The position numbers and the translations under genes are program-made. This document shows, one piece after another, positions 8,468-61,372 of a DNA stretch of 64,000 nucleotides. Location of the stretch: positions 96,001 to 160,000 of the IMG/VR virus record IMGVR_UViG_3300037781_000042; one strand, written 5' to 3'. Each line of letters opens with the position of its first letter. The first letter of the stretch is position 1. The notes under the pieces are model-generated. The model did no database searches and was not told the origin of the DNA. It saw only the letters and a program-made list of their open reading frames with translations. The DNA is from a virus. Lineage: Duplodnaviria; Caudoviricetes.

Positions 8468-8473
8468 TATTTT

Positions 8474-8743: not shown

Positions 8744-8746
8744 AAA

Positions 8747-15407: not shown

Positions 15408-15414
15408 TTAATTT

Positions 15415-42316: not shown

Positions 42317-42547
42317 ATGAAAAAAGAACAAAGAATAGTAGAAAGTTTTGAAGATTTTCAAAATCCTGAAGCAGCTCCAGTAGAAAATAAAATTTCTCCA
42401 GAAGCAAAAGAAAGAATGGAAAGTTTCGCAGATGCTGAAAATTTAACAGCTCTTGTTGATAGTGTAAGATTATTTGCTTCTGAAATGATGAACGACGGTT
42501 TTGAAAAAGAAGATGTAATGGAATACATTGAATCTATAATTGATTAA
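42317..42547 (+). CDS. Small acidic protein with capsid-targeting-like leader
   Basis: MKKEQRIVESFEDF; internal RMESF. Confidence 0.5.
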   Translation: MKKEQRIVESFEDFQNPEAAPVENKISPEAKERMESFADAENLTALVDSVRLFASEMMNDGFEKEDVMEYIESIID

Positions 42548-42560
42548 ATACTAAAAAACT

Positions 42561-43037: not shown

Positions 43038-43038
43038 A

Positions 43039-43479: not shown

Positions 43480-43946
43480 ATTATATGAAAGCTTTGATGA
43501 ATATTCTTCTTATGCTGGAGAAGTAGAAGTAAATACTGATTTAGAAGATGGTATTTACAAAGGAACTATTTCAGGATGGATAGTTACTGTAGAAGGACAA
43601 GATTATAGAAGTACAACAGGCGGAGTTAGATGCAGTGGGTGTCCTATTGAAGCCTTTGTTAAAAATAATGTTTTAAGATTTAAACAATTAAGGTAAAGAA
43701 AAGCTTATGGAAAAGAAAGATAGATTATATGAATCGTATAACAGTTTTTGTACACCTCCTAATATAAATACGTTCACTACAGAACAAAAAGATGGAACAT
43801 ATTCAGGATATGTTTATGGAGATAAATTGTATCTCCAAGGATGGGATAAAATAGAAGAATATTCTTTAATGACAAATAGAAGAATTAAAGGAAAGAAAAA
43901 AATAATAGTTGAAGTAAAAGACGGTTCATTTACTTACAATGTATAA
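43472..43946 (+). CDS. Two small tandem paralogs (43472..43696 and 43707..43946) with LYES(F/Y) leaders
   Basis: MTKLYESFDEY...DGIYKGTISG versus MEKKDRLYESYNSF...DGTYSGYVYG. Confidence 0.45.
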
Positions 43947-44418
43947 AAATAAGATGGAACAGAAACCAGTAAAATTATTTGAAGCTTGGAGAAAATTTAA
44001 TGAAGATAACAATCAAATGTCTCCAGAAGAAATGTTATCTCAGATTATAATAGATAAAGGATATGATGAAGCTATTGAGGTAATAGAAGAAAATCCTAAA
44101 CAATACTTAAGTGATTCTGCTGTAAGATTTGTTTCTGATTATCATGTATCAGAATGGGAAATCACTAAAGAATATCAAGAAAAATATTCTATTCCAGTTG
44201 AAAGATATTCTGAAATTTTACAAAGACTAGATGATTTAGTTGAAAATGAAATGAATAAACCTAAAGAAGGAGAATGGTTTAATGAAAAGGTTAAAGATGT
44301 TTTAGGAACTGATGTAATTAAATTAGAAGAACATTATTTAGATAAAGTAGTTTTTGATGATTACAATCATTTAAAATACATCTTAGAAAGAAGAAAGAAA
44401 CAAAGCATTCATTTATAA
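43939..44418 (+). CDS. Protein with capsid-targeting-like leader
   Basis: KPVKLFEAWRKFNE near the N-terminus. Confidence 0.45.
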   Translation: MYKNKMEQKPVKLFEAWRKFNEDNNQMSPEEMLSQIIIDKGYDEAIEVIEENPKQYLSDSAVRFVSDYHVSEWEITKEYQEKYSIPVERYSEILQRLDDLVENEMNKPKEGEWFNEKVKDVLGTDVIKLEEHYLDKVVFDDYNHLKYILERRKKQSIHL

Positions 44419-44511: not shown

Positions 44512-47500
44512 ATGGCAGTAAATATAAATCTTTTTGATATTAAAAAACCCGGCGTAACTATAATTGAAACAAGCGCAAATGATCAAGAATTACTTCAAAG
44601 TAATCGATTATCAGAAGAGCGTTTAGTAGTTGGTTTTTCAAGGGTGGGAACATTTAATAAAGTAGTAAGAATAGAAAACGTAGAACAAAGAAGAAGAGTT
44701 TTTGGAGAAATTGATTCGTTTTTAGAAAAAAGAGGATCTTATTTCCATAGATTTATAGATATTTGTTTACAAGAAGGTCCTGTTCTAGCACTAAATTTAT
44801 TAGCTTTAGATAATAGTGATGATGGAGATAAAGTAGAATTTAATTCATTTTCAACTACCCCGCAAACAGAAAATCCTAATAAAATAAAAGAACTTTATGC
44901 TGCATTTTATTCTAAAGAAAGAATGTGGGAACCTTCAGAATCAAACTTTAAAGCTATTATTGATAGTAATATAGAAACAAAAGATTCTATTTTATCATTT
45001 GTAAATTTAAGTCAATCTCAATATTCTATATTGATCAAAAAAGCAGATTCTACTAGAGAGTTTGATGTATATGCGCACGAATATTTTGGAAAAGAAAATG
45101 TTCCTCCATATATGAATCCTTTAGATAAAATTTCAGATTATTTTGTAGATGTAAAGATAATTAAAGGAGACTTCACTGATTATCAAAGTTTGTCTACTGA
45201 TGCTGTTTATTCAAAATATTTTAGCACTAACGGGTTAAATAAAGATTCAGTTTCTTCTTTAGAAGGTTCATCAGATTTTGATGTTGTTCTTTCTGTTACT
45301 GGATCAATAGTTCCTGACATTTTAGATGGGTCGGGAATTTCTTATTCTATTGATAATATCATCAACAACTATTTATCTACTGTTGGTTTATTTTGTACTA
45401 TTAACGATGATTATTTATTGTCTTTATCAGAAGAAGATTTTTCTGTAATTGATATGTTAGGTCATAGTTTAGTAGATGAAAATTTAGATATAGAATCTAT
45501 AGACTTTTTATCTTATAAATTTAGTTTATTAGAGAATATAATTTATACACAAAAAACTACATTTACAGAAGATAACGTTCCTTTAGCAGACGGATCTGAT
45601 CATTATCAGAATTCTGTAGGAAAAGGAGAAAATGGATTATTTTCTAATAGAGTAACTGTAGATGGAACAGATGTTCAGGCAAACATAATTCCAGAAACTT
45701 CTTTAATAAAATTAGATAATGGAGCTAAGTATGCAACAATTAAAAATTATAGTACAAGTTCTGGAAATACTATAATTACCTATACACATCCAGATAAAGC
45801 AGGGGAAGGAACTTTTAATTATTTAGTTGATTCTGTTGATGCAGCAAATAGTAATGTTGTAATAAAAGGAGTTCATGGAGATCTTGATTTAGGAATGACA
45901 AATGAAGATTTCTATTTAACGAACGGAATTTCTAAATATTATTTTGAACTTTCTGGATTTGATGTAGATGGAACAAATAACATAACGACATTTACAGTAG
46001 CAGATAATACAAATTTATCTAACATTGATACTAATTATAAAGCTACTTGGTCAGCAGGATATAAAATTTTAGAAGTAGATTCAGCAAATAGTAAAGTAAC
46101 GATTGACGGTTATTGGGATTTTGATACTATAAGTTCTAACTTAACTGCTAATACAGTTTATTTAAAAACTAATTCAGGAACTACTGGAACTATGGCTTTT
46201 TCTGGTCATACAATTGATGATAATGGAGATACTGTAGTAACAATAACTGCTGCTTCTACAGAATTGGCAAATGGAACAACATTTAATTTAGTGAGTTTAG
46301 GAGAATTGGATGAGCTTGCAACAAATCCTTATTATGTTACTTTTGGTTTTGATTCAATAACTAGACCAAATATTTCAGCAAATAATGTTCAACTTGTATA
46401 TGAACCAGACGTTGTAAAAATAGATGGTGATAAATTAGTTGCTTATAAGAGTTCTCAAGCTTATGTTGATTGGGAGTCTGGTAAACTTGCTCAAGGAGAT
46501 GTTTATTATAAAGAAATTACTGGTCCTACAGATAAAGCATATTATGTTTCAATTGAAAAATTATTAGATAATGATGGAGTAGAAAGAATAGTAATTGATA
46601 ATTATACTGATACAGATTTATCTGTAAAAGATTCAGAAGTAATGGCATTAGGAAATAAAAAGAAAGTAGGAGATACTTACGAAGCAGTTTCTCCTTCAGA
46701 AATTGCATTTTCTTCTAGAATAGGAAATATTAATGAAAAGATTTTAATTGAACAAACATTTGATTCTGGAACAAGAATAAGATTAACTTCTACAGAAGCA
46801 GATAAATTAAAAGTAGGAGATTTATTAAATACTCAAGTAAATGTAGAAGGAATAACTAAAAATTATTTAACTCCTATTTTAACTAAAAGAAAAGTAGTAG
46901 TTTCTGAAGTAATTTATTATGATATTACTTTAGTAAGAGCTCCTAAAATATTTTTAATTTCAAGTAGTTATTATATTGAAAAATACAAAACATTTAACGA
47001 CTTCACTGATTCATTTAATTTAATTACTTTAGGTGGATTTAAAATGGGCGAATACCATTTACCTGGAAGCTTTTTAAATAAATCAAGCCAATTAGAAAAA
47101 ATATTAGGAGTCATTACAGATACTAATTTAGAAGATTCTTTAATAGATAGAAACATTATAGATTTTAGATACTTAGTAGATTCGTTTGAATCTTTAATAA
47201 CAAATGAACTTTATCCTAAAACAATTTTATCTAATTTATGTAGTAAACAAGGAAGATCGATTGCACTTTTAAATGGACCAAGTATAGAAGCATTTACTAA
47301 TTCAGTTGCTCCTGGACCAATTTTTTCAAGCGCTGCTAACAATAGAGTATTTGATGCTATTTATGTAGCTGAAGGTGGAAATGATGATTTAAACCCAGAT
47401 TATAAATATTCACATCCTTCTGTTTCAAATGGAGCAAAACATTCAACTGTAGTTGGACCTTATGTTACTTATGTTAAAAACAATGGTCAAAGAATTAAAC

Positions 47501-48075
47501 TTCCTGCTGGAGCACATGCTTCAAATTTATTTGTTTCTAAAAATAGAACAGGAGATAGATTTAAACCTGCTGCAGGAACATCTAGAGGATTTATTAGAGA
47601 TCCTAGAGTAGTAGGAGTAGAATATATTTCTGAAAATGATGTTCAATATTTTACTGAAATAGGATATAATCCATTTATAGATAAAAGTGGATATGGAATA
47701 ATAATGTACGGAAATCAAACAAATTATTTAAAAGTTTCTCCTTTAGCAAATTTACATGTAAGAGACATGTTATGTACAGTTGAGAGATTAATTGAATATG
47801 TTCTACAAAGATATATTTTCGATAATAATACTCCTAGAACAAGATTTCAAATATTCGAAGATGTAGATGCTTTATTATTTCCTTTAAAAGATGAAGGAGC
47901 ATTTACAGATTATTCAATTAAAATAGATTCTAGTAATAACAATGGATCTGTTTTAGATGGATCTTATGGTATAATAGAAATTGAAATTTTCCCTACGTCT
48001 GCAATAAGAAGCTTTATTTGTGAACTTAATGTAAAGAAAGGAAGTGGTATAGAAGTTTCAGGATTTAATATTTAA
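44512..48075 (+). CDS. Contractile tail sheath protein 2 (T4 gp18-like)
   Basis: KKPGVTIIE...VVGFSRVG.FNK.V; C-terminal GYNPFI..G....GNQT....L..L.VR......E..I...L..YIFDNN....R. Shares FLEKRGS.FHR and FRY.VD with sheath 1. Confidence 0.92.
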   Translation: MAVNINLFDIKKPGVTIIETSANDQELLQSNRLSEERLVVGFSRVGTFNKVVRIENVEQRRRVFGEIDSFLEKRGSYFHRFIDICLQEGPVLALNLLALDNSDDGDKVEFNSFSTTPQTENPNKIKELYAAFYSKERMWEPSESNFKAIIDSNIETKDSILSFVNLSQSQYSILIKKADSTREFDVYAHEYFGKENVPPYMNPLDKISDYFVDVKIIKGDFTDYQSLSTDAVYSKYFSTNGLNKDSVSSLEGSSDFDVVLSVTGSIVPDILDGSGISYSIDNIINNYLSTVGLFCTINDDYLLSLSEEDFSVIDMLGHSLVDENLDIESIDFLSYKFSLLENIIYTQKTTFTEDNVPLADGSDHYQNSVGKGENGLFSNRVTVDGTDVQANIIPETSLIKLDNGAKYATIKNYSTSSGNTIITYTHPDKAGEGTFNYLVDSVDAANSNVVIKGVHGDLDLGMTNEDFYLTNGISKYYFELSGFDVDGTNNITTFTVADNTNLSNIDTNYKATWSAGYKILEVDSANSKVTIDGYWDFDTISSNLTANTVYLKTNSGTTGTMAFSGHTIDDNGDTVVTITAASTELANGTTFNLVSLGELDELATNPYYVTFGFDSITRPNISANNVQLVYEPDVVKIDGDKLVAYKSSQAYVDWESGKLAQGDVYYKEITGPTDKAYYVSIEKLLDNDGVERIVIDNYTDTDLSVKDSEVMALGNKKKVGDTYEAVSPSEIAFSSRIGNINEKILIEQTFDSGTRIRLTSTEADKLKVGDLLNTQVNVEGITKNYLTPILTKRKVVVSEVIYYDITLVRAPKIFLISSSYYIEKYKTFNDFTDSFNLITLGGFKMGEYHLPGSFLNKSSQLEKILGVITDTNLEDSLIDRNIIDFRYLVDSFESLITNELYPKTILSNLCSKQGRSIALLNGPSIEAFTNSVAPGPIFSSAANNRVFDAIYVAEGGNDDLNPDYKYSHPSVSNGAKHSTVVGPYVTYVKNNGQRIKLPAGAHASNLFVSKNRTGDRFKPAAGTSRGFIRDPRVVGVEYISENDVQYFTEIGYNPFIDKSGYGIIMYGNQTNYLKVSPLANLHVRDMLCTVERLIEYVLQRYIFDNNTPRTRFQIFEDVDALLFPLKDEGAFTDYSIKIDSSNNNGSVLDGSYGIIEIEIFPTSAIRSFICELNVKKGSGIEVSGFNI

Positions 48076-48077
48076 AA

Positions 48078-48956
48078 ATGAATAAAGAAAAGCAACAAAA
48101 AGAAAATTATAATCAAAGTCTTAGAGGAAAGGATTGGTTAGGTATAGTTGTTGATATAGAAGATCCTTTACAAAGAGGAAGAGCTAAGATAAGAATATTT
48201 GAAAGATTTGATCAAAGAGCTCCTATTGACGATAAAGGAACTTATCCCGACGAACCTTTAAAACTAGAAGATTATCTAGATGAATCACATTTTTTACTTC
48301 CTAATAAAGCTTTGCCTTGGATGTTTCAAGTAAATTCTCAAATATTTGCAGGAGGCGAAAATCCAGGATCAGGTTCTTTTTGTACTCCTAAGTTAGGATC
48401 TTTGGTAAAAGTTAATTTTGTAAACGATGACATTTATTCCGGAGAATATCATACTGTTCATAAATTAAATGAAAAGATGATGGGAATAATTACTCGTGAA
48501 GATGGTGATTATGTAAATGCAAATGTTACTTTCTTTGATGAAGATGAAGATTATTGGATGCTTTATACAAAATCTATAGGACTTCAAGTATATCATAAAG
48601 GAAGTCAAATAGTAATTCGCCCAGACTCTTCTATATTCATAGAACATAAAGATACGGAATCTATGATAGAATTAAAAGGTCCTGATATTAAGATAATATC
48701 AAATAGAGATATTGACATAACTTCAGAAAATAGAATAACTGTTAATTCAAGTATAGTTAAAATAAATGGAGACAATACTTATTTAGGAAGCTCTCCTACT
48801 TTTTCTGCTGTTCATGGAGAACCTTTAATGAAATTACTTAAAGCTATGGCAGTAAATATAGACGGAAAAATGTTTGCTACCCCTGGCGTTACCACTACTG
48901 CCGTAGATGCAGCAGAAAATTTAATACTAGCACAAACCGTAAAAGTTGGATCATAA
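48078..48956 (+). CDS. Baseplate hub/spike, T4 gp5 N-terminal OB-fold / gpV-like, no lysozyme domain
   Basis: WLGIVVDIEDPLQRGRAKIRIF...LPW...GSF.TPKLGS.V.V.F..DDIYS..Y, followed by a beta-helix-like tail. Confidence 0.85.
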   Translation: MNKEKQQKENYNQSLRGKDWLGIVVDIEDPLQRGRAKIRIFERFDQRAPIDDKGTYPDEPLKLEDYLDESHFLLPNKALPWMFQVNSQIFAGGENPGSGSFCTPKLGSLVKVNFVNDDIYSGEYHTVHKLNEKMMGIITREDGDYVNANVTFFDEDEDYWMLYTKSIGLQVYHKGSQIVIRPDSSIFIEHKDTESMIELKGPDIKIISNRDIDITSENRITVNSSIVKINGDNTYLGSSPTFSAVHGEPLMKLLKAMAVNIDGKMFATPGVTTTAVDAAENLILAQTVKVGS

Positions 48957-49795
48957 TGAATAAAGAATTTAAGACATATAAAGAGTTTTTAAATGAGAGT
49001 CAGGAACTAGATCAATCTATATTTCCATTAGAAGAACCTGAAGAAGTAAAAGCGTTTATAGAAAAACATCTTGTAAATAAAAAATATAATGAAGAATATA
49101 GATTAACAGGAGATTGGAAAGTAGACGAAGAAGGATATTTTAGCACTCCTGGAAATTTAAATATATCTTCTATGAGAGCAGTTAAGAAAAAAATTCCATT
49201 TAAAATAAAAAATATAGGAGGAAATTTTAATTGTAGTCATAATGCTTTATATGATTTAGAAGGTCTTGAGAAGTTAGAACAAGTTGGTGGAAATTTTAAT
49301 TGCGGTTGGAACAATTTACACAATTTAAAAGAATTAAAAAATCTCGAATCAGTAGGGGGTTATTTTGAATGTCAGAGTAATAATAAATTAACTAGTTTAG
49401 AAGGGTTAAAAAAGCTTCAATTTGTTGGAAAAGAATTGCATTATTCATTATATTATTATTTTAATATAGTACATCTAGCACGAAATCATAGGAAGTTTAT
49501 TTATTATTTTAGTACCTTAATGTTCCCACAATTACATTCAAGGGTAAAAGTTTCTATTAAAAATCATTCATCATATTATGATACTTCATACGAAGATGGA
49601 ATAAAAACTTTTGTATCTTTGACACAAAACGAACAAAAGAAAATAATAACTGCTTTAAGTGAAGTAGATCTTCAAGCATATAGAAAACTTCTTTCTTATG
49701 CTGAAGAAAATAATATTAAGTTACCTTTAGATAAAGAAGTTTACAAATGGAATAAAGAAGCTAAAGATTTAGATGATACTGGATTAGAATTTTAA
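48956..49795 (+). CDS. Capped LRR protein (type I) with capsid-targeting-like leader
   Basis: MNKEFKTYKEFLNE; about 3.5 repeats of (V/I)GGxFxCxxNxLxxLxGLxxL; N- and C-caps shared with 54827..55732. Confidence 0.85.
   Translation: MNKEFKTYKEFLNESQELDQSIFPLEEPEEVKAFIEKHLVNKKYNEEYRLTGDWKVDEEGYFSTPGNLNISSMRAVKKKIPFKIKNIGGNFNCSHNALYDLEGLEKLEQVGGNFNCGWNNLHNLKELKNLESVGGYFECQSNNKLTSLEGLKKLQFVGKELHYSLYYYFNIVHLARNHRKFIYYFSTLMFPQLHSRVKVSIKNHSSYYDTSYEDGIKTFVSLTQNEQKKIITALSEVDLQAYRKLLSYAEENNIKLPLDKEVYKWNKEAKDLDDTGLEF
49681..49795. repeat. Long imperfect inverted repeat, left arm (partner 54827-54941)
   Basis: The 3' ends of the two type I LRR genes match at about 105 of 115 nt by eye, including a 29-nt perfect run aaatggaataaagaagctaaagatttaga. 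Confidence 0.85.
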
Positions 49796-49830
49796 TTTTT
49801 TATTTTAAAAATTTTTACTATATTAAAAAT
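49796..49830 (+). promoter_or_regulatory. Early-promoter-like motif, copy 6 (plus strand, diverged)
   Basis: TTTTTTATTTTAAAAATTTTTACTATATTAAAA, then AAGGAG and a TTG start at 49846. Confidence 0.55.
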
Positions 49831-49845
49831 AAAAAGGAGTAAAAA

Positions 49846-50436
49846 TTGAATATTTTTTATTTAGATGAAGATATAGATAAAATAGTAGATTATCATTGCG
49901 ACAAACATGTTGTTAAAATGACAGTAGAATCTATTCAAATGCTAGCTACTGCATATTACATCCAACACGGATACGGAAAAATGTTTAAGAAACTTACAGA
50001 AGAAGAAATTTCTTTTATGAAAAATGAAGTATTTGTAGATTTTCCAAGAGAAGAAATTTATAGAACTTCTCATCCATATCACCCTTCTACTCAATGGGCC
50101 GCACAATCTATAAATAATTGGAATTGGCTTCTACAATTAGGAATGAAACTATCAGCTGAATTTACAAAAAGATACGGAAAAGAACATGCTACAAATCCTA
50201 GATTTGAATGGATGAAAAATAATCCTCCTACAAATCTTCCAGACATTCCATGGACTCCGCCGCCTCTTGCCATGCCTGACATATATAAGCTAGAAAATGT
50301 GGTAGAATCATACAGAAATTTCTACATTCATGATAAACCATTTGCTACATGGGACAGATTAAATAATAAACCAGAATGGTTTGAAAAAGGTGACTTCAGA
50401 ATATGTACAGGGAGTGCAGAGGAGCATCAGGTTTAA
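49846..50436 (+). CDS. Pyrimidine-dimer DNA glycosylase-like protein (DenV/Pyr_excise family)
   Basis: MNIFYLD...HCDKHVVKM..E..QML.TA...HP...W....NW.WL...L..E...RYGK.H...P.AMPD.Y.....V.SYR.FY...K. Confidence 0.8.
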   Translation: MNIFYLDEDIDKIVDYHCDKHVVKMTVESIQMLATAYYIQHGYGKMFKKLTEEEISFMKNEVFVDFPREEIYRTSHPYHPSTQWAAQSINNWNWLLQLGMKLSAEFTKRYGKEHATNPRFEWMKNNPPTNLPDIPWTPPPLAMPDIYKLENVVESYRNFYIHDKPFATWDRLNNKPEWFEKGDFRICTGSAEEHQV

Positions 50437-50462
50437 TTTTAAATTAAAAGATATAGGTAACT

Positions 50463-51059
50463 ATGCCATACAATAAAAGCTTCTTAGGGGATAAAGAGAC
50501 ACGTCGAGGATATACTACAACTAGTAACTTGGTGATGTTAAATTTTCAGCCTTTATATCAGGATATGTTTGTTTTTGATCCTGATCATTTAAGTGATTAT
50601 GTTCAAGATTATACTAATATTTTGTATTTGTATGAAGAGGAAAATTCTGCTTTTGATGTATATCAGATACAGGCTTTTTTAGAAGATACTTGTGGAATAG
50701 ATGATGTCGACTTTTTAAAGGTTCAGACTAAGAGTAAAGAAGAAGGATTCTTTTTAGACTTTAAAGATTTGGATGTTAATGAACTTGAGTTAGTAAAGTT
50801 TATTAGATATATGGATTCAAATGAAAAAGAATTAGATACTTTAACATTTGATGAGTATAAGAAATTAGGACTTTCCAAAGAGTTAAGTTTTGGAAAACTA
50901 CAAGAGCAAAATTTTTATATTCCTGATATTTATAGACATTTTGAATATGATAAGTTTACTTTTATAGGTGGACCAGAAGAAGATTCTTTATGGGAATTTA
51001 AGATTATGTTTGATGCTTTAAAATTGAAGTATGAATTAGATTATGATTTTATCTTTTAG
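50463..51059 (+). CDS. Acidic hypothetical protein
   Basis: Open 198-aa D/E/F-rich ORF; no recognised motif. Confidence 0.5.
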   Translation: MPYNKSFLGDKETRRGYTTTSNLVMLNFQPLYQDMFVFDPDHLSDYVQDYTNILYLYEEENSAFDVYQIQAFLEDTCGIDDVDFLKVQTKSKEEGFFLDFKDLDVNELELVKFIRYMDSNEKELDTLTFDEYKKLGLSKELSFGKLQEQNFYIPDIYRHFEYDKFTFIGGPEEDSLWEFKIMFDALKLKYELDYDFIF

Positions 51060-51073
51060 AGGATATATAGTTT

Positions 51074-51760
51074 ATGAGTAGTACTGCACATATAGAAAAT
51101 CCAAATGATCCTGGATTTATTTGTAAACCTGAATTAACTGTATCTGGATTAGCAGAAGGAAAGATATTATTAGATGAAATCCTTTTAGTTTCAGAAGGAT
51201 ATGTTAAAAGAGATTCTATATTAAAAATATCTTTAACTGAATCTTATTTACAAGAAAATGATACTTATACATTTAATGCTCAAGATGTTTATAAATTTAT
51301 TTTAGGAGATAATGTTCAATCTTACTATTTAGAAAAAATAGAAGAGGTTGGAGATGTTACTGTTATTCATGTTTATGGAAAAACAGTTGAATTAGAAAAA
51401 ATATTTGGAACTTTAGAAGCTAAATCTTTATCTGAAGTTTATTTAGAAATTTCTGGTGAATTACAATTAACAGCTCCTTTAACGTGTCAATTAAGCAATC
51501 AGGATCCCGAAATTAGAGGAGTAACTTCTACTTCTGTAATATTTGATTCAAATGAATTAAATTCAAATTTTAGTAAAATAAGAGTTAGATATAAAAAAAT
51601 AAATGATTCAACTTGGTTATTTGCTGAATCATCTACTAGTGGATCTTTAACTTTATCTAATCTAGAAGAAAATGAAATTTATATTGCTTCTTATATGAAG
51701 TATTGTTCTTCTACTGATTGGTCTTTTTATTCTAAAAATTTATCATTCAAAACTTTTTAG
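51074..51760 (+). CDS. Protein with a C-terminal fibronectin type III-like domain
   Basis: VTSTSVIF...IRVRYKK...TW.....LTLSNLEENEIY......S...YS....FKT follows the FN3 pattern. Confidence 0.6.
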   Translation: MSSTAHIENPNDPGFICKPELTVSGLAEGKILLDEILLVSEGYVKRDSILKISLTESYLQENDTYTFNAQDVYKFILGDNVQSYYLEKIEEVGDVTVIHVYGKTVELEKIFGTLEAKSLSEVYLEISGELQLTAPLTCQLSNQDPEIRGVTSTSVIFDSNELNSNFSKIRVRYKKINDSTWLFAESSTSGSLTLSNLEENEIYIASYMKYCSSTDWSFYSKNLSFKTF

Positions 51761-52174
51761 TTCTGGACAATATTTGATAAATTCTAAATTGTCTAATTCT
51801 TTTAATTCCTTTTTACATTCTTTTATTTCTGTAGAAACTATCATAAATTTTTCAATTTTTTCAGAATATTTCTCTTCTATAAATCTCTGTAAATTTTCAA
51901 CTAAAGAAGTATGAATTACAGGAACTTTATAAACAAAGTATTTAGACTTAGAACTTTTAAAACTATTTTGAATTTTCTTAGTTAAAAAACAATTAAAATG
52001 AAAATCTGTATATTCAGGATCTCCTAAATCATGACTATTTTCATAATCTTTTCTAAGAATTTCTACATCTAAAAATTTATAATAAAATGGATCTAAGATG
52101 TCTTTTAAATCTTTTTCTATTTCAGTAGTTAAAATAAAATTCATTTATAATAAGTGGTTAATTAAAGTAACAGA

Positions 52175-53659
52175 TTATATATTGACACTAGATTTACGCA
52201 ATTCTTTTATTTGTTCTTCTAAATCACCTGGATTTTCTTCTACATTAATTCTACGAGCTTTAGGTAAAAAGTCTAATTTTTCTATTTCATTATAACTTAT
52301 ATCTAACATACCCGTTATTTCTTTTTGTAATCCTTCAATAGAAGTAAGTTGATTTCCAAATAATATTATATTTCCTTTTACTAGAGGAATTTCTTTTAAA
52401 GTTTTAAGTTTTGTTCTTTGAGCAAATAAAGACCCATTTACTTTTTTAATATCTTCGAACTTTTCTATTTTAGTAAATCCTACAGTTAAATCTCCATCTA
52501 CAATTTCTGGTCCACCTTTTAAAGAAGTTAAGTACTTATTATTTGAAAGATACAAATCTCCTACTTCCTGTGGGCAATGAAGTAAATTTATAATTTCAGT
52601 ATTTTGACAATCTAAATCTCCTACTTTTACTGGAATTCCTTCTAAAGTCTTTAATGGATTATAAGAACAGTCGTATTCGCGACCTACCTGTTTTGGTCCA
52701 TCTACCAAACTAGGCAAATTGTTATAAGAACAATCAAAAATTCCTTCTACTATTTCTGGAGATCCTTCTAAATTTTCTAATTTATTATTAGAGCAATTGA
52801 AATTTTCTGTAATTTTTCTGAATCTAATTCCTATATCTAATAAACTATTTAAATTTCTTCTAAATAAGTTTATGCTTCCATCATAATCATAAGTTCCATC
52901 TCCATTATCAGTTAACTTATCTTCATTAATTCCATATTTTGTAAGTGTACGATGTAATTGAGCTTGAGGAGAAGTTAATTCTCTAGGCATAAAAATATTT
53001 TCATCAAGTCCTAACTCGTTCATAACATAATGCATTCCTATTTCTGTATCATTTGCATTATAAACAAGTCTTCTTTCATCTTCATAAACAGCTACTGCAA
53101 TTTTGGAATAAGTTTTACTGTGTGATCTATTTTTATCTATAATGTAATAAAGAGTTACTCCTTGATTATAAACATAACTTTTAAAATAATTATCTTTTTT
53201 AGCAGCAGTACACCATCTAGTTCCTGATCCGTATTTACAACTAGATTCTATCGTTTGCGGAACAATAATTAAAAAATCATCATTATCTAATATTACTTCT
53301 ACCTCAGAAGTTTCTTTCTTTTCTTTATCTATTTCCTTTTTTCTTTTAAGTGCTTGTGTAATAAGCGAATCAAATTCTTCATAAGAAAGTCTTTGAATAT
53401 CTGCATTTATTAGATTTCTATTTTCTAATTCATGATAAGTCTCTATAGCAGAAGAAAGTTCAAATGGTTCTACTTTATCTTTTAAATGAAATTCAATTAA
53501 TTTTTCTACATATTTAAAATTAGGACTTGGATCCATCTTTACAAACTCGTCAAACGTTTCCTTATCTATTTTATTTGTATTTAAAAATCTTCTTTTAGCA
53601 CTTGCTTTAGATTCATTTAAACTTAAAAAGTCTCTATAATTTAAAAATTCTTTATTCAT
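52175..53659 (-). CDS. GSGTxWC-domain plus LRR protein (type II) with capsid-targeting-like leader
   Basis: MNKEFLNYRDFLSLNE-SKASAKRRF; DP.P..KY.EK; SCKYGSGTRWCT...YF..Y....LYYII; about 9 C-terminal LRRs (FxCSxNxLxxLxGxP). Confidence 0.8.
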   Translation of the reverse strand: MNKEFLNYRDFLSLNESKASAKRRFLNTNKIDKETFDEFVKMDPSPNFKYVEKLIEFHLKDKVEPFELSSAIETYHELENRNLINADIQRLSYEEFDSLITQALKRKKEIDKEKKETSEVEVILDNDDFLIIVPQTIESSCKYGSGTRWCTAAKKDNYFKSYVYNQGVTLYYIIDKNRSHSKTYSKIAVAVYEDERRLVYNANDTEIGMHYVMNELGLDENIFMPRELTSPQAQLHRTLTKYGINEDKLTDNGDGTYDYDGSINLFRRNLNSLLDIGIRFRKITENFNCSNNKLENLEGSPEIVEGIFDCSYNNLPSLVDGPKQVGREYDCSYNPLKTLEGIPVKVGDLDCQNTEIINLLHCPQEVGDLYLSNNKYLTSLKGGPEIVDGDLTVGFTKIEKFEDIKKVNGSLFAQRTKLKTLKEIPLVKGNIILFGNQLTSIEGLQKEITGMLDISYNEIEKLDFLPKARRINVEENPGDLEEQIKELRKSSVNI

Positions 53660-54816
53660 TATTCTATTATTCTTGGTGGTCTGTTTGAAATTACTTCTAA
53701 TAAACCTAATTCTAACTCATCTCTTTTATTTGATTCTGGATTTATATTTTTAGGAGCTTCTGGAATTCTCCTATCTGGATTTACTTCTAAATTTCCTAAA
53801 TCCAGTTGTTCTCTTCTAGCACTCGAAACATTTAATTCTCCTAAATCTAATTGTTCTCTTTCTGAACTTTCTGCATTTATATTATCAGGAAGTCTAATTT
53901 CTCTTTTAAGTTTTGCTTCTTCAGCAGATTCTTCTTCAATATTTGAAATTTTTATTTTATTTGAATCTTTAAAATCTTGATAATCTTCTTCCTTAGGTCT
54001 TCTTTCGTTTCCTTGTTCTGCATATAAACCAGTTTTAGGTCTAACGAAATTAGTTAAGAAATTAAAGTCTTGTCTATTATCATCACTAAAGTAGCCTGTT
54101 CCTCCATATCCAAATAATTCTTTAGTAGGCAAATTATAAACTTCTAAAATTCTTCTAGGAATAATTTCAAATGTATGTTTTATATCATCTTCGGTTCCTT
54201 CATTAGTAATAGAAGATGCAAGTCCCGAATAATCATCAAAAACAAATTCACAATCTCTAAGCTTTAAAACAATTACTCCTTGAGAATCATCATCATATTC
54301 TAATTTATTTCCATTTCTCTTAAGTAGTATTCTAGGATCTATAAGATAAATAGACATATCAAAAAATCTTAAATTTTTAACTAAAACGTCTCTCATATAT
54401 TTTTTATCTTGAACTGTTGATCTATAAGCTTCCATTAAAGATAAAAATTTCATATCGACAGATTCTCTAGAAGATACCGTAAAAGAAGTTCCTTCAGGAA
54501 GTCTTGGACCTTCGTTATTTAAAGTTAAAAGATCATTTACTCCTGAAAGTTGAGTAAACCACCAAGGTTCTTCAATAGAAAATTTTCTTAATAAATTAAC
54601 AAAATAATCTAATTTTTGAACTCTTAAATCGTCTCCTCTTGAAGATAGAAAATCTCTAGCACCTCCTGAAAGTAATCCAGGTTCTAAAGATTCGTCAGGA
54701 GAAATTCTAGGAAAAAATTCAAAACGCAAACCAAATGTTAAATATAATGGATCTTGAACTCCATCTACACTTCTATTTATAAATCTATTTCTATAATTAT
54801 CGTACTTATTTATCAT
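53659..54816 (-). CDS. Probable tail tube/baseplate-initiator-fold protein with C-terminal low-complexity repeats
   Basis: DPLYLTF.L.F...PWWF..LSG...ES.DM...L...YR....D....R..L..NLR.F.M.IY pattern typical of large-phage tail modules; repeated REQLDLG.L.V in the tail. Confidence 0.4.
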   Translation of the reverse strand: MINKYDNYRNRFINRSVDGVQDPLYLTFGLRFEFFPRISPDESLEPGLLSGGARDFLSSRGDDLRVQKLDYFVNLLRKFSIEEPWWFTQLSGVNDLLTLNNEGPRLPEGTSFTVSSRESVDMKFLSLMEAYRSTVQDKKYMRDVLVKNLRFFDMSIYLIDPRILLKRNGNKLEYDDDSQGVIVLKLRDCEFVFDDYSGLASSITNEGTEDDIKHTFEIIPRRILEVYNLPTKELFGYGGTGYFSDDNRQDFNFLTNFVRPKTGLYAEQGNERRPKEEDYQDFKDSNKIKISNIEEESAEEAKLKREIRLPDNINAESSEREQLDLGELNVSSARREQLDLGNLEVNPDRRIPEAPKNINPESNKRDELELGLLEVISNRPPRIIE

Positions 54817-54826
54817 TTGTATCTAT

Positions 54827-55732
54827 TTAAAATTCTAATCCTGTATCTTCTAAATCTTTAGCTTCTTTATTCCATTTATAAACTTCTTGATTTATAGATA
54901 ATTTAATATTATTTTCTTCTGAATAAGAAAGAAGTTTTCTACATGAGGGTAGATCCCAATCCATTAAATCTTCTATAATCTTCTTTTGTTCTTCTTCTGG
55001 TAAAGATACTAGATATTTTATTGAATCTTCGTATTTTTCTTGAGGTTCAACTTCTATATTTCCTTTAACTTCAAAAGTAAATTTTTTAGAAAGTATATTG
55101 TTACGATGACACCGGAAATCGCCACCTACAGACTTAAGATTTTCAAGACCTTTCAAACTGGTTAACTTGTTACCATGGCACGCAAAAGTACCATCTACAA
55201 ACTTAAGACTTTGAAAACCTTCTAAACTAGTTAACTTATTATAATGCAACCATAAATCCTCTCCTACAGACTTAAGATTCTCAAGCCCTTTTAAACCGGT
55301 TAATTTGTTATTATCACACCTGAAAGAGCCACCTACAAACTCAAGATTCTTAAGACCTTCTAAAGTAGTTAACTGGTTTTTAGAACATAAAAAATAATCA
55401 CGTACAGACTTAAGACTTTCTAAACCTTCTAAACTAGTTAATTTGTTATTAGAACAATCGAAATCGCCACCTACAGACTTAATTCTAAAAGGTAACTTAG
55501 TTAACTTCATTTCACTTAAATTTATATCCCCTGTACAAGAGACATACCCTTCTTCACCTATTGTCCAAGCACCAGATAAACGATGCTTCCTAGTTGGAGT
55601 CTTTTTCCCTTCTAGGTTTTCTTGGATCCATTTTTTAACTTCTCCAGGATCTTCTAAAGGAAACCTAGATTGATCGAAACCTTTGCTTTCGTTTATAAAC
55701 TCTGTATAATTTTTTATCTGTTTAGTTATCAA
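54827..55732 (-). CDS. Capped LRR protein (type I) with capsid-targeting-like leader
   Basis: MITKQIKNYTEFINE; 5.5 regular 22-aa LRRs (66-nt DNA period); C-cap RKLLSY.EENNIKL....VYKWNKEAKDL.DTGLEF shared with 48956..49795. Confidence 0.9.
   Translation of the reverse strand: MITKQIKNYTEFINESKGFDQSRFPLEDPGEVKKWIQENLEGKKTPTRKHRLSGAWTIGEEGYVSCTGDINLSEMKLTKLPFRIKSVGGDFDCSNNKLTSLEGLESLKSVRDYFLCSKNQLTTLEGLKNLEFVGGSFRCDNNKLTGLKGLENLKSVGEDLWLHYNKLTSLEGFQSLKFVDGTFACHGNKLTSLKGLENLKSVGGDFRCHRNNILSKKFTFEVKGNIEVEPQEKYEDSIKYLVSLPEEEQKKIIEDLMDWDLPSCRKLLSYSEENNIKLSINQEVYKWNKEAKDLEDTGLEF
55100..55480 (-). repeat. Coding tandem repeat with 66-nt period (LRR modules)
   Basis: Recurrent ctacagacttaag / ctacaaact(t/c)aag and gttaa(c/t)tt motifs every 66 nt. 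Confidence 0.9.
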
Positions 55733-56161
55733 TTTTCTTTATTTTTGTTTTTTACATTTGCTAACTTCTTTTTAGTTAGTATCAATTTCATCATCATTGC
55801 AAGCAATAATGAATTTTCTTCTCTATTTAATACATAAGCAAAATTTTCTTTTAAAGACCACTTACTGATAAATTCTCTCATATTTAAAGAAGATACATCA
55901 ATTGCAATTGCATCTATTTCTCTAGTAACTTCTTCTGCTCCAAAAGAACCATCGTTATTAAAGCTTCCTAAAAAACTTATTCTTTTAGAATCTACTTCTA
56001 GTTCTAATTCGTCTAAAATTTCTGCTAAAACGTCGTGAGTTTCATCTTGAGGCTCTACTATAAAAGGTCTATTATTTAAAACATTTTCAGAATAATAAAC
56101 TCCTAACTGCCCTTCCTTTGTCATAGTATACAAAAGAAATCCCATTTTAGTATATTCAATA

Positions 56162-57394
56162 TTATTTGGCATTAATACTCCCTAATACTGGAGCCCATCT
56201 TCTCTGTAAAAAATCATACATAGAAGTTTTCTCCTTGTTATTTTTCCAAGTTAACTTTTTCCTTAAAGTAACTCCTTTTAAATCATCAATTGCATCTTTA
56301 CCCAAAGAAGGATTGTTTTCTATTGTCAAGGTACCTGAAATGTTTTTCGGTAAACCTTTTAAACTTGTTAATTTTTTATTTCCTTCTATTTTAAAACTTT
56401 CAACACCTTTAAATTCTGAAAAATCTACGCTTTCTAAAGATTCTAGATCTGTATCAGAAATAACAATTGCTCCTGTTATTTTAAAATCTATATTCTTCAT
56501 TCTAGAAAAATCGATATAAGGAATATCAGAATTTACATAAAAATCTTTAAAATGAATCTGTTCAACGTTTTTTTCAACATTATGTCCTATTTTAGGATTA
56601 TGATTGTGAACTAAAATTTTTCTGCTTTCTCCTTCTGGTTCAGGTTTTTCTAAAAGCTTTTTAATTTTATCTGGTAAAGCATTCCACCAAATTCTTCTTT
56701 CTTCATTCATTCCAGTATCTAAAATAGGATTAAATGAAGAATCAGGTGCGTCCCAAAAATTAGAAAGCTGTCCACTATAATTTACTTGGGCAGCAACCTT
56801 ATATAAAGGATTTTTATCTTCACTCGAAACGGGTTGACTATCAAAAGCTTTGTTTGTTATAACATAAAAATGTTGTCCTTGTCTCCAAAAATAATCGTTC
56901 CAGTGTACTGGAGTTAAAAACGTAATACACCATTTAGTTCCTGATCCTATCTTTTTTGCTCCTGTCCAATTAAATACTAAATGACATCTCCAAGCATCGT
57001 CATCATAAACCATTACACTATTTTCAGAAATTTCTTTTTTCTTCTTTTGTGTATTAGAAATCTTTCCTCTAGCATCTATAATAACTTTTTCAAAGTCATC
57101 TATTTCAGAATATCTTTGAATGTCTTTATCGTTTCCACTTATTATATTTCTATTTGTTTTTTCGTGAAACTCTTCTATTAAATGACTAAGAGCCATTATT
57201 CTTTCCAGTTCCATGATTTGAGAATAATTTTCATGATCTTTCATTTGAAGAAAGAAGTCACACATTTTCTCAATATATTTTTTATTATTTGTTGGATCTG
57301 CAGATAAAAGCTGTGTAAAAGTAGAACTGTTGATTCTTCCAGTTTCTACAAATCTTTGTTCTGCTTGTTTTTTACCTTCATTAAGATGTTGCAT
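56162..57394 (-). CDS. GSGTxWC-domain plus short LRR protein (type II), paralog of 52175..53659
   Basis: MQHLNE-GKKQAEQRF; ADP...KKYIEK; KIGSGTKWCI; HFYVI; KVAA; C-terminal KKLTSLKGLPKNISG.L.I.NN. Confidence 0.8.
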   Translation of the reverse strand: MQHLNEGKKQAEQRFVETGRINSSTFTQLLSADPTNNKKYIEKMCDFFLQMKDHENYSQIMELERIMALSHLIEEFHEKTNRNIISGNDKDIQRYSEIDDFEKVIIDARGKISNTQKKKKEISENSVMVYDDDAWRCHLVFNWTGAKKIGSGTKWCITFLTPVHWNDYFWRQGQHFYVITNKAFDSQPVSSEDKNPLYKVAAQVNYSGQLSNFWDAPDSSFNPILDTGMNEERRIWWNALPDKIKKLLEKPEPEGESRKILVHNHNPKIGHNVEKNVEQIHFKDFYVNSDIPYIDFSRMKNIDFKITGAIVISDTDLESLESVDFSEFKGVESFKIEGNKKLTSLKGLPKNISGTLTIENNPSLGKDAIDDLKGVTLRKKLTWKNNKEKTSMYDFLQRRWAPVLGSINAK

Positions 57395-57433
57395 TCTTAT
57401 TTGTTTTTATTTCTTTTAGTATAGTATATATTT

Positions 57434-58102
57434 CTATTGTTTTACGTACCTGTCTAAGTATTCATAACAACATTTTAAAAACCATTCAAAAGTATCTGTT
57501 CCTTTAAATAATTTTAAATAAACATTCCATATTTGACCTTTAACATGATCTACAGGTTCTACTTCTTGTAAAGTTCTTTCTATTTTTTCTTTATTCCACT
57601 TCAATTGATTTTGGAACTTATTCATTTGTTCATTTGCATAAGCTCTTATTTCTTCAAAAGTAGAAAAATATTTAATATCATCTTCTAAATCAGAGCCTTC
57701 CATAAAAGGTCTTTTAGGATTTAAAGAATCTTGTTGATGTGTCATTTCATGAACTAAAGAATCTTCTAATCTAGACATCCAATTATCCCATTTAGTATCA
57801 TTTTCTTTTATAGAAAGAACATCTGGCTGTAGTAAAATATGTACTTGTTCATCTTTAGAATTATGAAATGCTGGACTTCCTTCTAATTCTGGAAAATCTT
57901 TGTAAGTATGAAATACTACGTCATATTTTTTAGTTACCATTGTTAAATATTCAGCAAGCTCCTCTAAAGAAGTTACTTTAGATTGAATAAAATCTTTAGA
58001 TCTAGCAACGTCTTTTTTAATTAATTCAATAGCATCCCATGGGATTGATGTTGATACTTTTTCATTTATAAATTCTTTATATGTCTTAAATTCTTTATTC
58101 AT
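57434..58102 (-). CDS. HExxH zinc metalloprotease-like (SprT/zincin) protein with capsid-targeting-like leader
   Basis: MNKEFKTYKEFINE; LVHEMTHQQD; downstream YFSTFEEIRAYANE supplies a plausible third ligand. Confidence 0.7.
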   Translation of the reverse strand: MNKEFKTYKEFINEKVSTSIPWDAIELIKKDVARSKDFIQSKVTSLEELAEYLTMVTKKYDVVFHTYKDFPELEGSPAFHNSKDEQVHILLQPDVLSIKENDTKWDNWMSRLEDSLVHEMTHQQDSLNPKRPFMEGSDLEDDIKYFSTFEEIRAYANEQMNKFQNQLKWNKEKIERTLQEVEPVDHVKGQIWNVYLKLFKGTDTFEWFLKCCYEYLDRYVKQ

Positions 58103-58469: not shown

Positions 58470-60443
58470 ATGAAAGATTCTCCTTGTAAAGATTGTAGTT
58501 GCGAGACTATTTATAGAAAAATTGAACGTCCTAAAACATACCAATTCGGGGTAGATAGTGACCAATGGATAAAATATTATGTTCCTGTAGATGATTATGC
58601 GGATGTAGCTGGTGCTGATTATTTTACATCTTATGAGGACATGGAAACAGATTACAATTCTACTGCTTTAGTAGCCTCTTTAGCAACTAAATTTTTATCT
58701 AATGGTCCGGGGTTTGATCCTTGGCACGATACTATAGAAGAAGCTGTAACATATTTAGATAGTTTTGATTATACGTTTGGAGGTTCATTTCCAGCAAATT
58801 CTTTTTATTGGACAATTATTTATGTAACTAATCCTAATTATGGAAAAGAATTACAATATGATTCTTCAGTATTAAGTTGGCCAATAAATCAAGATGCTAT
58901 TTGTTATGACGAATTAAAAGATCCTTTTTGGAAAATTAAATTTCCTATATGTGGATCGAATGGAAAAAAAGACAAAGACAATACTTTTAAATTTAAAGAT
59001 TGTGGTATCTGGAACGTAGAATATAGACTAAGACTTCGTCCTTTAGTATTTTTTGGTTGGCCAGAAGATGGAGATACTTGTGCAGATCATTGGTTAGAAT
59101 CGGGAGAAGAAGTAGATAATACTGAAAATAGAACTAAGCTATGGAATACGTATAGATTTTATAGTGCTATGAAAGAACAGGCAGGAGCAAAATATTTAGG
59201 AATGACTAAGCTTAGATTAGAAACTGGAATATTTAATGAAGATAGTCAAACACAAAAACCTATAGTTTGGTCAGAAGGAAAATATCCTCAGCCAGTAATT
59301 AAATATAAAGACTATTGGGATTCAAATTATGAAAATGGTAAATATCTTTATTATAAGGAATGCTCGCCTACTCAATGGGAAGGAATGCATCCTCATTTAA
59401 TATCTTCTGATATGGAAGAAACTGAAGTAGTTTATAAACAATTTAACTACAGTTTTACTTCAGGTTCTGTAAGTGAAGGATTATTTGAAGTAACTACAAA
59501 TGATTTTGATAATCCTGGCGATATTATTCTTTCTAAAAAATCACAACTAAAAGGAGATCAATATAATACAGCAGACATTCCTTTAAAATATAGGTTAGAT
59601 GAACCTGATAGATTTTTCAGTAACTGTTTAGAAAATCAATATGCTTCTCCAACAGGAGATGTTGAAATTGTACAAAGAGCTTTTATAAATGGTGAATGGA
59701 AAAAACTTCGTAAAGTTAGTTATAGTTTAATAGAAGTCGTAGAAAATCCTACTTCAGTTACTTTAGATGTAGATGTAGGAACAGTTATTAATTATGATGT
59801 AGGTAACATTGAAGATACTGATACATTTTATAATGGAACTACGTATAAAACAAAATATGAAATTTTAGTAAGTATAGAAAAAGTAACTAAATCTGTTCCT
59901 AAAATGGATTATGCAAACGTTACTATAGGAAATGTTACTGAATTAACAGATGATTTTGTTTATGAATTGGAAGGATTTACTCATGTAGATATGGATAAAC
60001 AAAAAGAAATTTCTATTTATCTTAAAGCTTTACCAGATTCTCCTAGCGGGCATCCTTTAGAACATGATACTGGATTTACAATGCCAGGTATTTCTTCTAT
60101 ACAACCAACTAAAAATGGATCTGACCCTGCAATTATAAATGAATCAGATACCATGCCTGAAAAATATTGGCCTTGGGGTGTACTTTCTGCAGATGAAAGA
60201 ACAGGCTATCAAGAACAATTTAAAAAAGTATACGAACCTTTACTTCCTATTCGTCCTGATCTTATTGATTTTGATGCTACTGGAACTGGGATAATAGATA
60301 ATGTTAGAGCAGGGCAAGCATATAGATGGGGTCACGTTCTTTCTGATGAAAATTGGATAGGAAGAAAAAATCCTTTCTGGTATATTATGATAGAAGAAGG
60401 ATGGATTAGATTAACTAAAACATGCGAAGGTTGTTGTGATTAA
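58470..60443 (+). CDS. Large hypothetical, probable virion protein with Cys-rich termini
   Basis: 657 aa; begins CKDCSC and ends CEGCCD; preceded by the ATATATAGTTT motif. Confidence 0.45.
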   Translation: MKDSPCKDCSCETIYRKIERPKTYQFGVDSDQWIKYYVPVDDYADVAGADYFTSYEDMETDYNSTALVASLATKFLSNGPGFDPWHDTIEEAVTYLDSFDYTFGGSFPANSFYWTIIYVTNPNYGKELQYDSSVLSWPINQDAICYDELKDPFWKIKFPICGSNGKKDKDNTFKFKDCGIWNVEYRLRLRPLVFFGWPEDGDTCADHWLESGEEVDNTENRTKLWNTYRFYSAMKEQAGAKYLGMTKLRLETGIFNEDSQTQKPIVWSEGKYPQPVIKYKDYWDSNYENGKYLYYKECSPTQWEGMHPHLISSDMEETEVVYKQFNYSFTSGSVSEGLFEVTTNDFDNPGDIILSKKSQLKGDQYNTADIPLKYRLDEPDRFFSNCLENQYASPTGDVEIVQRAFINGEWKKLRKVSYSLIEVVENPTSVTLDVDVGTVINYDVGNIEDTDTFYNGTTYKTKYEILVSIEKVTKSVPKMDYANVTIGNVTELTDDFVYELEGFTHVDMDKQKEISIYLKALPDSPSGHPLEHDTGFTMPGISSIQPTKNGSDPAIINESDTMPEKYWPWGVLSADERTGYQEQFKKVYEPLLPIRPDLIDFDATGTGIIDNVRAGQAYRWGHVLSDENWIGRKNPFWYIMIEEGWIRLTKTCEGCCD

Positions 60444-61372
60444 GCAGAACCAAATTTGTTAGGATCTAAACTTTTAAAATAATCTAAAGATTGCATTTCT
60501 ACCTTTTCAGGATCAAATTTAATATAAGGATCTTTTTCAGGTTCTGGAGCAGATGCTAAAGTTATAGTTTTTTGTTGATTTGTATTTCCTAAAATCTCTT
60601 CTTTTTTAACAGAAGCTAAATTAGCAGATCCTTTTAATGTAGTAGCTAAAGTAGCTATAGTTTTTTCTACATCTTTTAAAGGTTTAATTTTTCCTTTTCT
60701 TATCTCATTTTCTAATCTTTTAGCAGATCTTTTTCTAGCAGTCCCTTCTGATTCTCCTGTTCCAAAACCTACAACTCTATTTACATAATCTATATCAGTA
60801 AGTCTTTCTTTTTTAGCTCTTTCAAAATATTTTACTGCTATATCAAAAGCATATTCAGGATCAGCTGCTAACTCAGGATTATTTACTAAATCAACTCCTA
60901 ATTGCTTAGATGCTTTAGTATAATTGTGTTTTCCTGTAAGTTGAATTAAGCCACCTCCTCTATATTTATAACCATCTTCAAATTTGTCATTTCCTAAATC
61001 TTTTCTTTTTCCATAAAGAACTCCAAATAAATATTCTGGTCCTTTTTTTATAGCTGCTTGTGCATGTTGAATAGTAGGAAATTTAACTGCATTTTTTCTT
61101 TTACTCTTTTGCTGTTCTTTAGGGCCCCAAAGTTCCATTAATCTTTCAGCAGAATAATTAGTTAATTCTCTTTTAGGAATAAAACCGGATTCATGCTTTA
61201 TTTGTGCTAAAATGTTAGCTTGTGCTTTAGGATCTGTTATCCCTGCTTCAATTAATTTACTAAGTAAGATGTTCTTATTTAATTGCACTAACTTTTCTTG
61301 ATCAGATTTTGCAACCTTTCTCCAATTAAAAGTATCTTCGTTTAATTTATAATCTGTGTATTTTATAATCAT
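60440..61372 (-). CDS. Glycoside hydrolase family 19 (chitinase/endolysin-like) with cleavable leader
   Basis: ANILAQIKHESGF...LYG...LGN....DGYKYRGGGLIQLTGKHNY...LG.DLV.NPEL; N-terminus MIIKYTDYKLNE. Confidence 0.9.
   Translation of the reverse strand: MIIKYTDYKLNEDTFNWRKVAKSDQEKLVQLNKNILLSKLIEAGITDPKAQANILAQIKHESGFIPKRELTNYSAERLMELWGPKEQQKSKRKNAVKFPTIQHAQAAIKKGPEYLFGVLYGKRKDLGNDKFEDGYKYRGGGLIQLTGKHNYTKASKQLGVDLVNNPELAADPEYAFDIAVKYFERAKKERLTDIDYVNRVVGFGTGESEGTARKRSAKRLENEIRKGKIKPLKDVEKTIATLATTLKGSANLASVKKEEILGNTNQQKTITLASAPEPEKDPYIKFDPEKVEMQSLDYFKSLDPNKFGSA

Follow-up and report, generated by a model that had tools for sequence, protein, structure and literature searches.

A shared leader on unrelated genes of an uncultured jumbo phage probably encodes a T4-type capsid targeting sequence

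In a 64,000-bp stretch of an uncultured phage genome (bases 96001–160000 of the 211,581-bp IMG/VR record IMGVR_UViG_3300037781_000042, 27.3% GC), two genes begin with almost the same DNA. The gene starting at 48956 on the plus strand encodes a protein with leucine-rich repeats (LRRs), the one starting at 58102 on the minus strand a protein with an HExxH motif. This whole stretch is called the window in the following, and coordinates refer to it unless the record or another contig is named. From the common gene starts an earlier note on the sequence had concluded that the leader behaves like a movable DNA cassette, which is grafted by recombination onto unrelated genes and thereby recruits new cargo to the phage head. 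The locus thus raises the question whether this DNA identity marks a mobile element or simply follows from the peptide which is encoded. We consider the second answer likely, with a probability of roughly 0.7: the shared 5′ sequence encodes a capsid targeting sequence (CTS) of the T4 type, and the near identity of the DNA stems mostly from an identical peptide in combination with codon bias, not from an active cassette.

Likeness of the leader to the T4 capsid targeting sequence

Counted from the start codon, the leader has a length of 14–16 codons. About ten genes of the record, four of them in the window, begin with M-N-K-x-x-K-x-Y-x-E-F-[LIV]-N-E, and these genes belong to at least five unrelated cargo families. 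The same tag is found on the LRR families, on the HExxH protein and on the products of the genes at 17139 and 17787 of the record, which are mutually without BLAST similarity. Other leaders of the genome differ at positions 2–9 (MNKIVKGYTEF, MKKEFLGYQEF and ITKQIKNYTEF). Every tight leader ends in [LIV]-N-E, a cleavage motif of the gp21 type, gp21 being a protease that cleaves after L/I-x-E. The leader matches the CTS of T4 in its core, Y-x-E-F-[LIV]-x-E, as well as in its final [LIV]-x-E (K-T-Y-K-E-F-[LI]-N-E here, K-T-Y-Q-E-F-I-A-E in T4). In T4 the CTS, MKTYQEFIAE, is cut once by the head protease gp21 (PMC8442874; PMC5694885), and this tag suffices for loading foreign proteins into the head (PMC8442874; PMC5694885; PMC3012670).

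The genome encodes counterparts of the T4 head components. A 661-aa frame contains a match to Peptidase_S77 (gp21; PF03420, 56.3 bits, above the cut-off) and runs on into about 11 Y-S-E-Y-[LIV]-A-E repeats, which are scaffold-like and resemble the core of the leader. Just downstream of this protease-scaffold frame a match to the Gp23 capsid protein is located (PF07068, 100 bits).

Most likely, the 14-residue N-terminal propeptide M-N-K-E-F-K-T-Y-K-E-F-[LIV]-N-E would dock its protein to the prohead's scaffold core and would then be removed after the final Glu by a head protease of the gp21 family, while the cargo would stay inside the capsid and travel with the DNA. Docking partner, packaging and cleavage are all predicted from sequence. 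Selection would act on the peptide, and in a genome with 27% GC an identical peptide would result in nearly identical DNA; this identity would end at the Glu codon because the function of the peptide ends there. The combinations of leader and cargo may go back to gene fusions and duplications that were old or only occasional, and would mostly have been passed on with the cargo. The tag would then mark proteins, among them LRR proteins and the zincin-like HExxH protein, which are probably taken into the head of this jumbo phage and delivered along with the DNA, and it would offer a cheap way of listing candidate injected effectors.

Extent, copies and codons of the leader DNA

Two exact copies of the 29-mer ATGAATAAAGAATTTAAGACATATAAAGA are present in the window (48956–48984 on the plus and 58074–58102 on the minus strand), and shuffled versions of the window yielded 0 matches. 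The identity described in the earlier note is hence exact, and the true run is even longer with 33 nt, as four additional nucleotides (CATA) located 5′ of the ATG are also common to both genes. The first 15 nt of the gene at 53659 (53645–53659, minus strand) likewise agree with both leaders, as had been claimed; for a 15-mer, 0.28 matches are expected by chance. Across the whole 42-nt leader the genes at 48956 and 58102 are 93% identical, whereas the identity in the following 78 nt is 0.33 and thereby matches the background of the genome (0.30 ± 0.06). This confirms that the identity stops at the Glu codon, the predicted cleavage site. Homology is accordingly bounded by the ATG, or a position 4 nt 5′ of it, and by this Glu codon. 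After removal of the leader the two proteins share nothing else by BLAST, in agreement with their description as unrelated. In the whole record five copies of the leader with at most one mismatch are present, each at a gene start, and the leaders of the genes at 17139 and 154102 of the record agree at 41/42 nt.

The anatomy of a cassette was not found around the leader or in the record at large. A blastn-short search found nothing collinear upstream of the leader ATGs, and identity is at background level up- and downstream, save for one weak outlier. Orphan, partial or non-genic copies are absent from the record: all copies with up to three mismatches are located at gene starts, and a six-frame motif scan adds none. 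The genome-wide search for the leader, which had been proposed as a check, therefore returned gene-start copies only, with no homology of significance beyond the 42 nt coding for the peptide. A scan for sigma-70 promoters and terminators between 48 and 62 kb yielded fewer sites than shuffled sequences and is not informative here. In all four leader genes of the window the start codon overlaps the stop of the gene before it (TAATG in three of them, otherwise TTGA), which indicates that they sit inside operons and are not self-contained units. Within the genome, leader genes are dispersed across 190 kb, many of them being translationally coupled within operons.

Apart from the leader, the genome harbors a dispersed, exact intergenic repeat of 35–61 nt (including TGTAATATAAGAAAAATTTTTTAAATAAAAAAAT), which is located at 8419–8468, 15372–15411 and 23192–23241 and at positions 7912, 70912, 88922 and 182915 of the genome sequence G000. 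At two of these sites a hairpin and a T-run follow, and the repeat looks like a regulatory cassette of promoter and terminator. None of its three copies in the window adjoins a leader gene. By its analogy to the promoter and stem-loop elements (PeSLs) of T4-type phages, this repeat may be regarded as the genome's real candidate for a movable DNA cassette.

The codon usage of this genome is heavily skewed, with AAT accounting for 0.83 of the Asn, AAA for 0.84 of the Lys, GAA for 0.91 of the Glu, TTT for 0.87 of the Phe and TAT for 0.87 of the Tyr codons. A run of eight identical codons consequently has a probability of 0.06 for any pair of identical peptides. In simulations under this codon bias, in which identical codon pairs among leaders were counted, the leaders did not exceed expectation: the five tight leaders exhibited 98/122 identical pairs (expected 90.3 ± 7.9, p = 0.19), one leader per cargo family gave 32/36 (26.8 ± 3.2, p = 0.09), and a set of eight leaders 203/265 (199 ± 14, p = 0.41). 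Moreover, synonymous differences among leaders are found at 5/12 codons (AAG/AAA, GAA/GAG twice, TTT/TTC and AAT/AAC). Protein constraint plus AT-biased codon use, which the earlier note had named as the explanation that would speak against its proposal, thus accounts for most of the identity, apart from a weak excess of rare codons discussed below. The view that the identity marks a mobile or recently grafted cassette found no support, since codons are as identical as codon bias predicts and both homologous flanks and orphan copies are absent. Where codon bias is this extreme, the fact that DNA is identical across a short conserved peptide adds almost no information, and the question of leader DNA would be better asked in relatives with balanced codon use.

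Leaders and cargo in relatives, and competing explanations

The degenerate pattern M-N-K-x4-Y-x-E-F-x-N-E was found on nine metagenome contigs with 27–52% GC. Contigs with 45% and 52% GC write the same class of peptide with C-ending codons (e.g., AAC AAG CAC ATC ... TAC ... TTC), and such different codons for one peptide class argue for selection acting on the peptide. At 6345–12509 the contig with 52% GC (L018, SXGQ01886508.1) carries seven tagged genes in tandem, whose cargo is unrelated. There, both Glu codons are used equally and are random among the leaders (8/20 pairs identical, 10 expected), and at other positions the preferred codons are uniformly used. Codon identity among these leaders is above the level expected from the average usage of the contig (63/79 versus 46–47, p about 0.001–0.002), but this excess vanishes if the usage of the two most biased genes is applied. 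It is hence best ascribed to codon preference and not to copying, with some doubt left by the Lys codons (10/10 pairs identical, p = 0.03). Most tagged genes of this array are preceded by an A-rich motif resembling GATAAA(T/C)A, possibly a late promoter.

The leaders also form dialects, each contig using its own version across unrelated cargo: MNKEFKTY in this genome, MNKHIK[LI]Y in L018 and L019, and MNK[KV]VKSY in L012, L014 and L015. Searches of IMG/VR with exact and degenerate leader patterns returned one other contig only, G001 (L021/L022, IMGVR_UViG_3300037590_000072; 32 kb, 27% GC). All that it has in common with this genome is a gene consisting of leader plus LRRs (61% identical at the amino acid level), whose leader is identical to the one found here, including its AAG and ACA codons. 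This suggests, as judged from sequence comparison, a horizontal transfer of the whole tagged gene. Further tagged genes of G001 have other leaders, namely MKTYREFIKE, which is much like the CTS of T4, MKSRYLNFKKFINE and, on a 518-aa gene (a putative ATPase by sequence) beside a 471-aa gene, MNKPVKNYTTFINE.

As had been proposed as a further check, homologues of the cargo were sought elsewhere, and for three families they were found with no leader or with a different one. Homologues of the LRR proteins include leaderless bacterial proteins with signal peptides and sorting domains of type IX secretion, and within one phage LRR subfamily the N-terminus consists of a leader of the F-I-N-E-S type, of one of the K-L-F-E-N-F type or of none. 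These leader states cluster on the cargo tree (5 changes versus 10.9 for shuffled labels; none of 200 shuffles was as low), which indicates that the leader is mostly inherited with its cargo. A domain characterized by a W-C-T-A motif, which carries a leader in this genome, is present without one in gp486 of the Caulobacter phage CcrBL9. The cargo of the gene at 17139 of the record has leaderless homologues as well (P0129 and P0131), whereby start codons in metagenomes may be miscalled. For the HExxH protein, an alignment-profile search added one distant contig without tagged neighbors; searches with the HExxH and the gp5-like protein for related loci found no relatives, and tblastn with the HExxH protein against GenBank phages found nothing. 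The idea of a movable leader consequently survives in part: the leader is a separable module present on at least five unrelated families, three of which have leaderless or differently tagged homologues, but a mechanism at the DNA level is not supported.

Several observations weigh against the explanation by peptide and codon bias. In the 60 nt upstream of the genes at 48956 and 58102 ungapped identity is 0.50, compared to 0.30 ± 0.06 in the background; as one outlier among 28 pairs, and with no BLAST support, it was treated as chance. A test weighted by codon rarity showed that the less common codons are shared by leaders more often than expected. This excess stems from AAG at Lys-6, which three families have in common, and from ACA at Thr-7, which is common to all five. 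For triples with one leader per family the p-values of the test were 0.004, 0.06 and 0.04, or 0.006, 0.11 and 0.08 if codon usage at 5′ ends was applied. The codon bias is furthermore so strong that codon tests have little power for single pairs, such as the genes at 17139 and 154102 of the record. The closest orthologue of the HExxH protein, from another phage (P0001, 69% identical), carries the different leader MKVKRYNEFINE, its N-terminal half being different, while the HExxH leader of this genome is identical to the leaders of other families, which pure vertical descent would not predict. In this lineage the HExxH leader was hence either replaced or converged on the local dialect. Finally, head packaging and cleavage of the tagged proteins are themselves predictions. 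Taken together, the common minor codons may be a weak trace of a common descent of leader DNA, not of recent copying, and an older common origin of the leaders at the DNA level is possible. Nor are these codons explained by codon context, which was tested for Thr before Tyr, for Lys before Thr and for Glu before Phe.

A weaker and older form of the cassette idea would be that the exact MNKEFKTYKEF was copied as DNA from one family, probably the LRR family, onto others within this lineage. Cargo replacement behind a resident leader, illegitimate recombination or short-tract conversion could have served as routes, recently enough to leave common minor codons. AAG (15% usage) and ACA are indeed common to the leaders of three unrelated families and to the LRR gene of the otherwise unrelated contig G001, with which nothing but this tagged gene is shared. 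Yet for the shared minor codon p is estimated at about 0.04 once the number of codons examined (12) is corrected for, plain codon identity does not exceed the expected level, and the leaders differ at five synonymous sites. Exchange would also account for the HExxH leader of this genome being the version that its LRR genes and the gene at 17139 of the record also carry, where P0001 and the more distant HExxH relatives carry yet other leaders, and for dialects that run across unrelated cargo; leader type, on the other hand, mostly tracks cargo phylogeny. As flanks lack homology, orphan or partial copies were not found in the record, and 42 nt are very short for a conversion bounded on both sides, we regard such an exchange as unlikely. 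It is quite unlikely, too, that short DNA exchanges between leader copies uphold concerted dialects, with each phage keeping its own version of the tag across its cargo and orthologues taking on the local one. If this were true, the leader would act as a truly exchangeable module of coding DNA, and its inverted 33-nt copies at 48956 and 58102 could also drive rearrangements of the 9-kb cargo block between them.

Dialects specific to a genome would equally be expected if unrelated leaders had independently been driven to a local optimum by one common partner (scaffold repeat plus protease), with no transfer of DNA. The likeness between scaffold repeats and leader core and the largely randomised synonymous sites fit with such a convergence, but 11 consecutive identical residues in three families are much to ask for, as leaders varying at positions 2–9 are evidently tolerated in this genome, and convergence does not predict minor codons common across families; this makes it very unlikely. 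Least probable of all, and hardly to be expected, is that the tag does not serve head loading but is an address for tail or baseplate or provides an RNA-level context for translation start. The tagged cluster does sit between genes for tail sheath, gp5-like hub and lysozyme, and the same TAATG overlap of stop and start is present in three leader genes. From 27 to 52% GC, though, it is the peptide and not the RNA that is conserved, and a head address is suggested by the close T4 CTS match, by the protease motif at the end of the tag and by its likeness to the scaffold repeats. A T4-type CTS, whose DNA is kept similar mostly by codon bias, therefore appears as the preferable reading of the leader.

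Tagged genes, their surroundings and known systems

The coordinates of leaders and cargo are collected in Table 1. BLAST of the proteins without leader grouped the LRR family into four genes with a mutual identity of 42–55%, LRR paralogues this diverged keeping the leader at 14/14 residues, and a second family into three genes that have an N-domain with the W-C-T-A motif followed by LRRs. No further match within the set exists for the HExxH protein or for the products of the neighboring genes at 17139 and 17787 of the record. The LRR character of the gene at 48956 has weak support by Pfam and good support from its homologues. Around residues 165–200 (49400–49600) its product exhibits an odd stretch without LRR character, at a place where the repeats of its three paralogues are regular, possibly due to an old frameshift that was later compensated. 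In the HExxH protein H118, E119 and H122 of the motif as well as E151 are invariant across seven family members, which suggests a probable zincin-type metallopeptidase. Its structure resembles zincin domains of the ArdC, DarA and SprT type only weakly (TM-scores < 0.5), which is no more than a lead.

Table 1. Leaders, tagged genes and adjoining genes in the window.
Feature	Position	Strand	Remark
gp5-like baseplate hub gene (context)	48078–48956	+	stop codon overlaps start of the leader gene
42-nt leader, encodes MNKEFKTYKEFLNE	48956–48997	+	ATG overlaps TAA stop of the upstream gp5-like gene (TAATG)
Leader and LRR cargo gene, 279 aa	48956–49795	+	one of the genome's four LRR paralogues
Leader and 494-aa cargo: N-domain with G-x-G-T-x-W-C-T-A motif, then LRRs	52175–53659	-	
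Looser 16-codon leader MNKEFLNYRDFLSLNE	53612–53659	-	first 15 nt as in the leaders at 48956 and 58102
LRR paralogue, 301 aa	54827–55732	-	45–55% identical to the other three LRR genes
Diverged leader, TTG start, ITKQIKNYTEFINE	55688–55732	-	start overlaps upstream stop (TTGA)
Paralogue of the 494-aa gene	56162–57394	-	only 6 residues (MQHLNE) N-terminal to the conserved body
Leader and HExxH cargo gene, 222 aa, probable zincin-type metallopeptidase	57434–58102	-	H118, E119, H122 and E151 invariant in family
42-nt leader, encodes MNKEFKTYKEFINE	58061–58102	-	ATG overlaps TAA stop of the upstream 112-aa gene
GH19/endolysin-like gene, N-terminus MIIKYTDYKLNE loosely leader-like	60440–61372	-	membership in the tagged set uncertain

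The product of the GH19/endolysin-like gene may be a packaged lysozyme. Upstream of the cluster two very long, paralogous tail-sheath genes are located (38882–42238 and 44512–48075; 1118 and 1187 aa), whose C-terminal ends match tail-sheath PHROGs. The small genes between them (42317–44418) have a second N-terminal motif (MKKEQ[RK]IVESF[EQ]D[FY], M..LYESF...), which may represent another class of tag. Outside the window, at 41.6–43 kb and 53.8–55.3 kb of G000, collagen-like G-x-x repeat DNA (GGTAACCAAGGATGGCAAGG) is present in two distant genes, with exact repeats of up to 59 nt.

As an evolutionary statement, the separable leader finds partial support, whereas a movable DNA cassette as a mechanism at the DNA level is not supported. 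A mobile cassette would imply a dedicated mechanism of cargo recruitment, and the evidence requires none. A true movable DNA cassette is represented by the PeSLs of T4-type phages (Arbiol et al., 2010, PMC2839356), and the 35–61-nt repeat of this genome is of that general kind. PeSLs are non-coding units of promoter and terminator whose DNA identity coding cannot account for; the leader, in contrast, is coding and bounded exactly by ATG and Glu codon.

The closest parallel is the CTS of T4 itself, likewise a short N-terminal Y-x-E-F-[LIV]-x-E tag ending in [LIV]-x-Glu, carried by unrelated proteins in a genome with a gp21-family protease and a gp23-type capsid protein. Unlike in T4, the tag has 14 instead of 10 residues, with an additional M-N-K-E-F start and N-E instead of A-E at the cut site. 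It is spread over about ten (tight class) or more genes across 190 kb, many of them operon-coupled, compared to the two small ip loci of T4, and its cargo includes LRR proteins and a zincin-like protein, whose packaging is predicted. The internal proteins of T-even phages have the leader alone in common and are otherwise highly diverse (PMC3012670, PMC12373910). In the hypervariable ip loci of these phages, genes for unrelated injected proteins share only the leader, and new cargo appears repeatedly behind the same tag (Repoila et al., 1994; Comeau et al., 2007, as cited in PMC2839356; PMC12373910), a situation similar to the one observed here. The shuffling in T-even phages was ascribed not to the leader but to elements of promoter and stem-loop on either side of whole genes, which keep these genes confined to two loci (PMC2839356), unlike in this genome, where no conserved flanks accompany the leader. 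A further likeness exists to gp53 and gp54 of the giant phage SPN3US, which have 15 identical N-terminal residues at 34% overall identity (PMC5694885), i.e., an identical propeptide on diverged bodies. These conserved N-termini were read as a constraint of assembly or maturation (PMC5694885). In contrast to the tag described here, gp53 and gp54 are paralogues with a cut motif of the phiKZ type (A/S-x-E), while the leader of this genome is also carried by non-homologous bodies.

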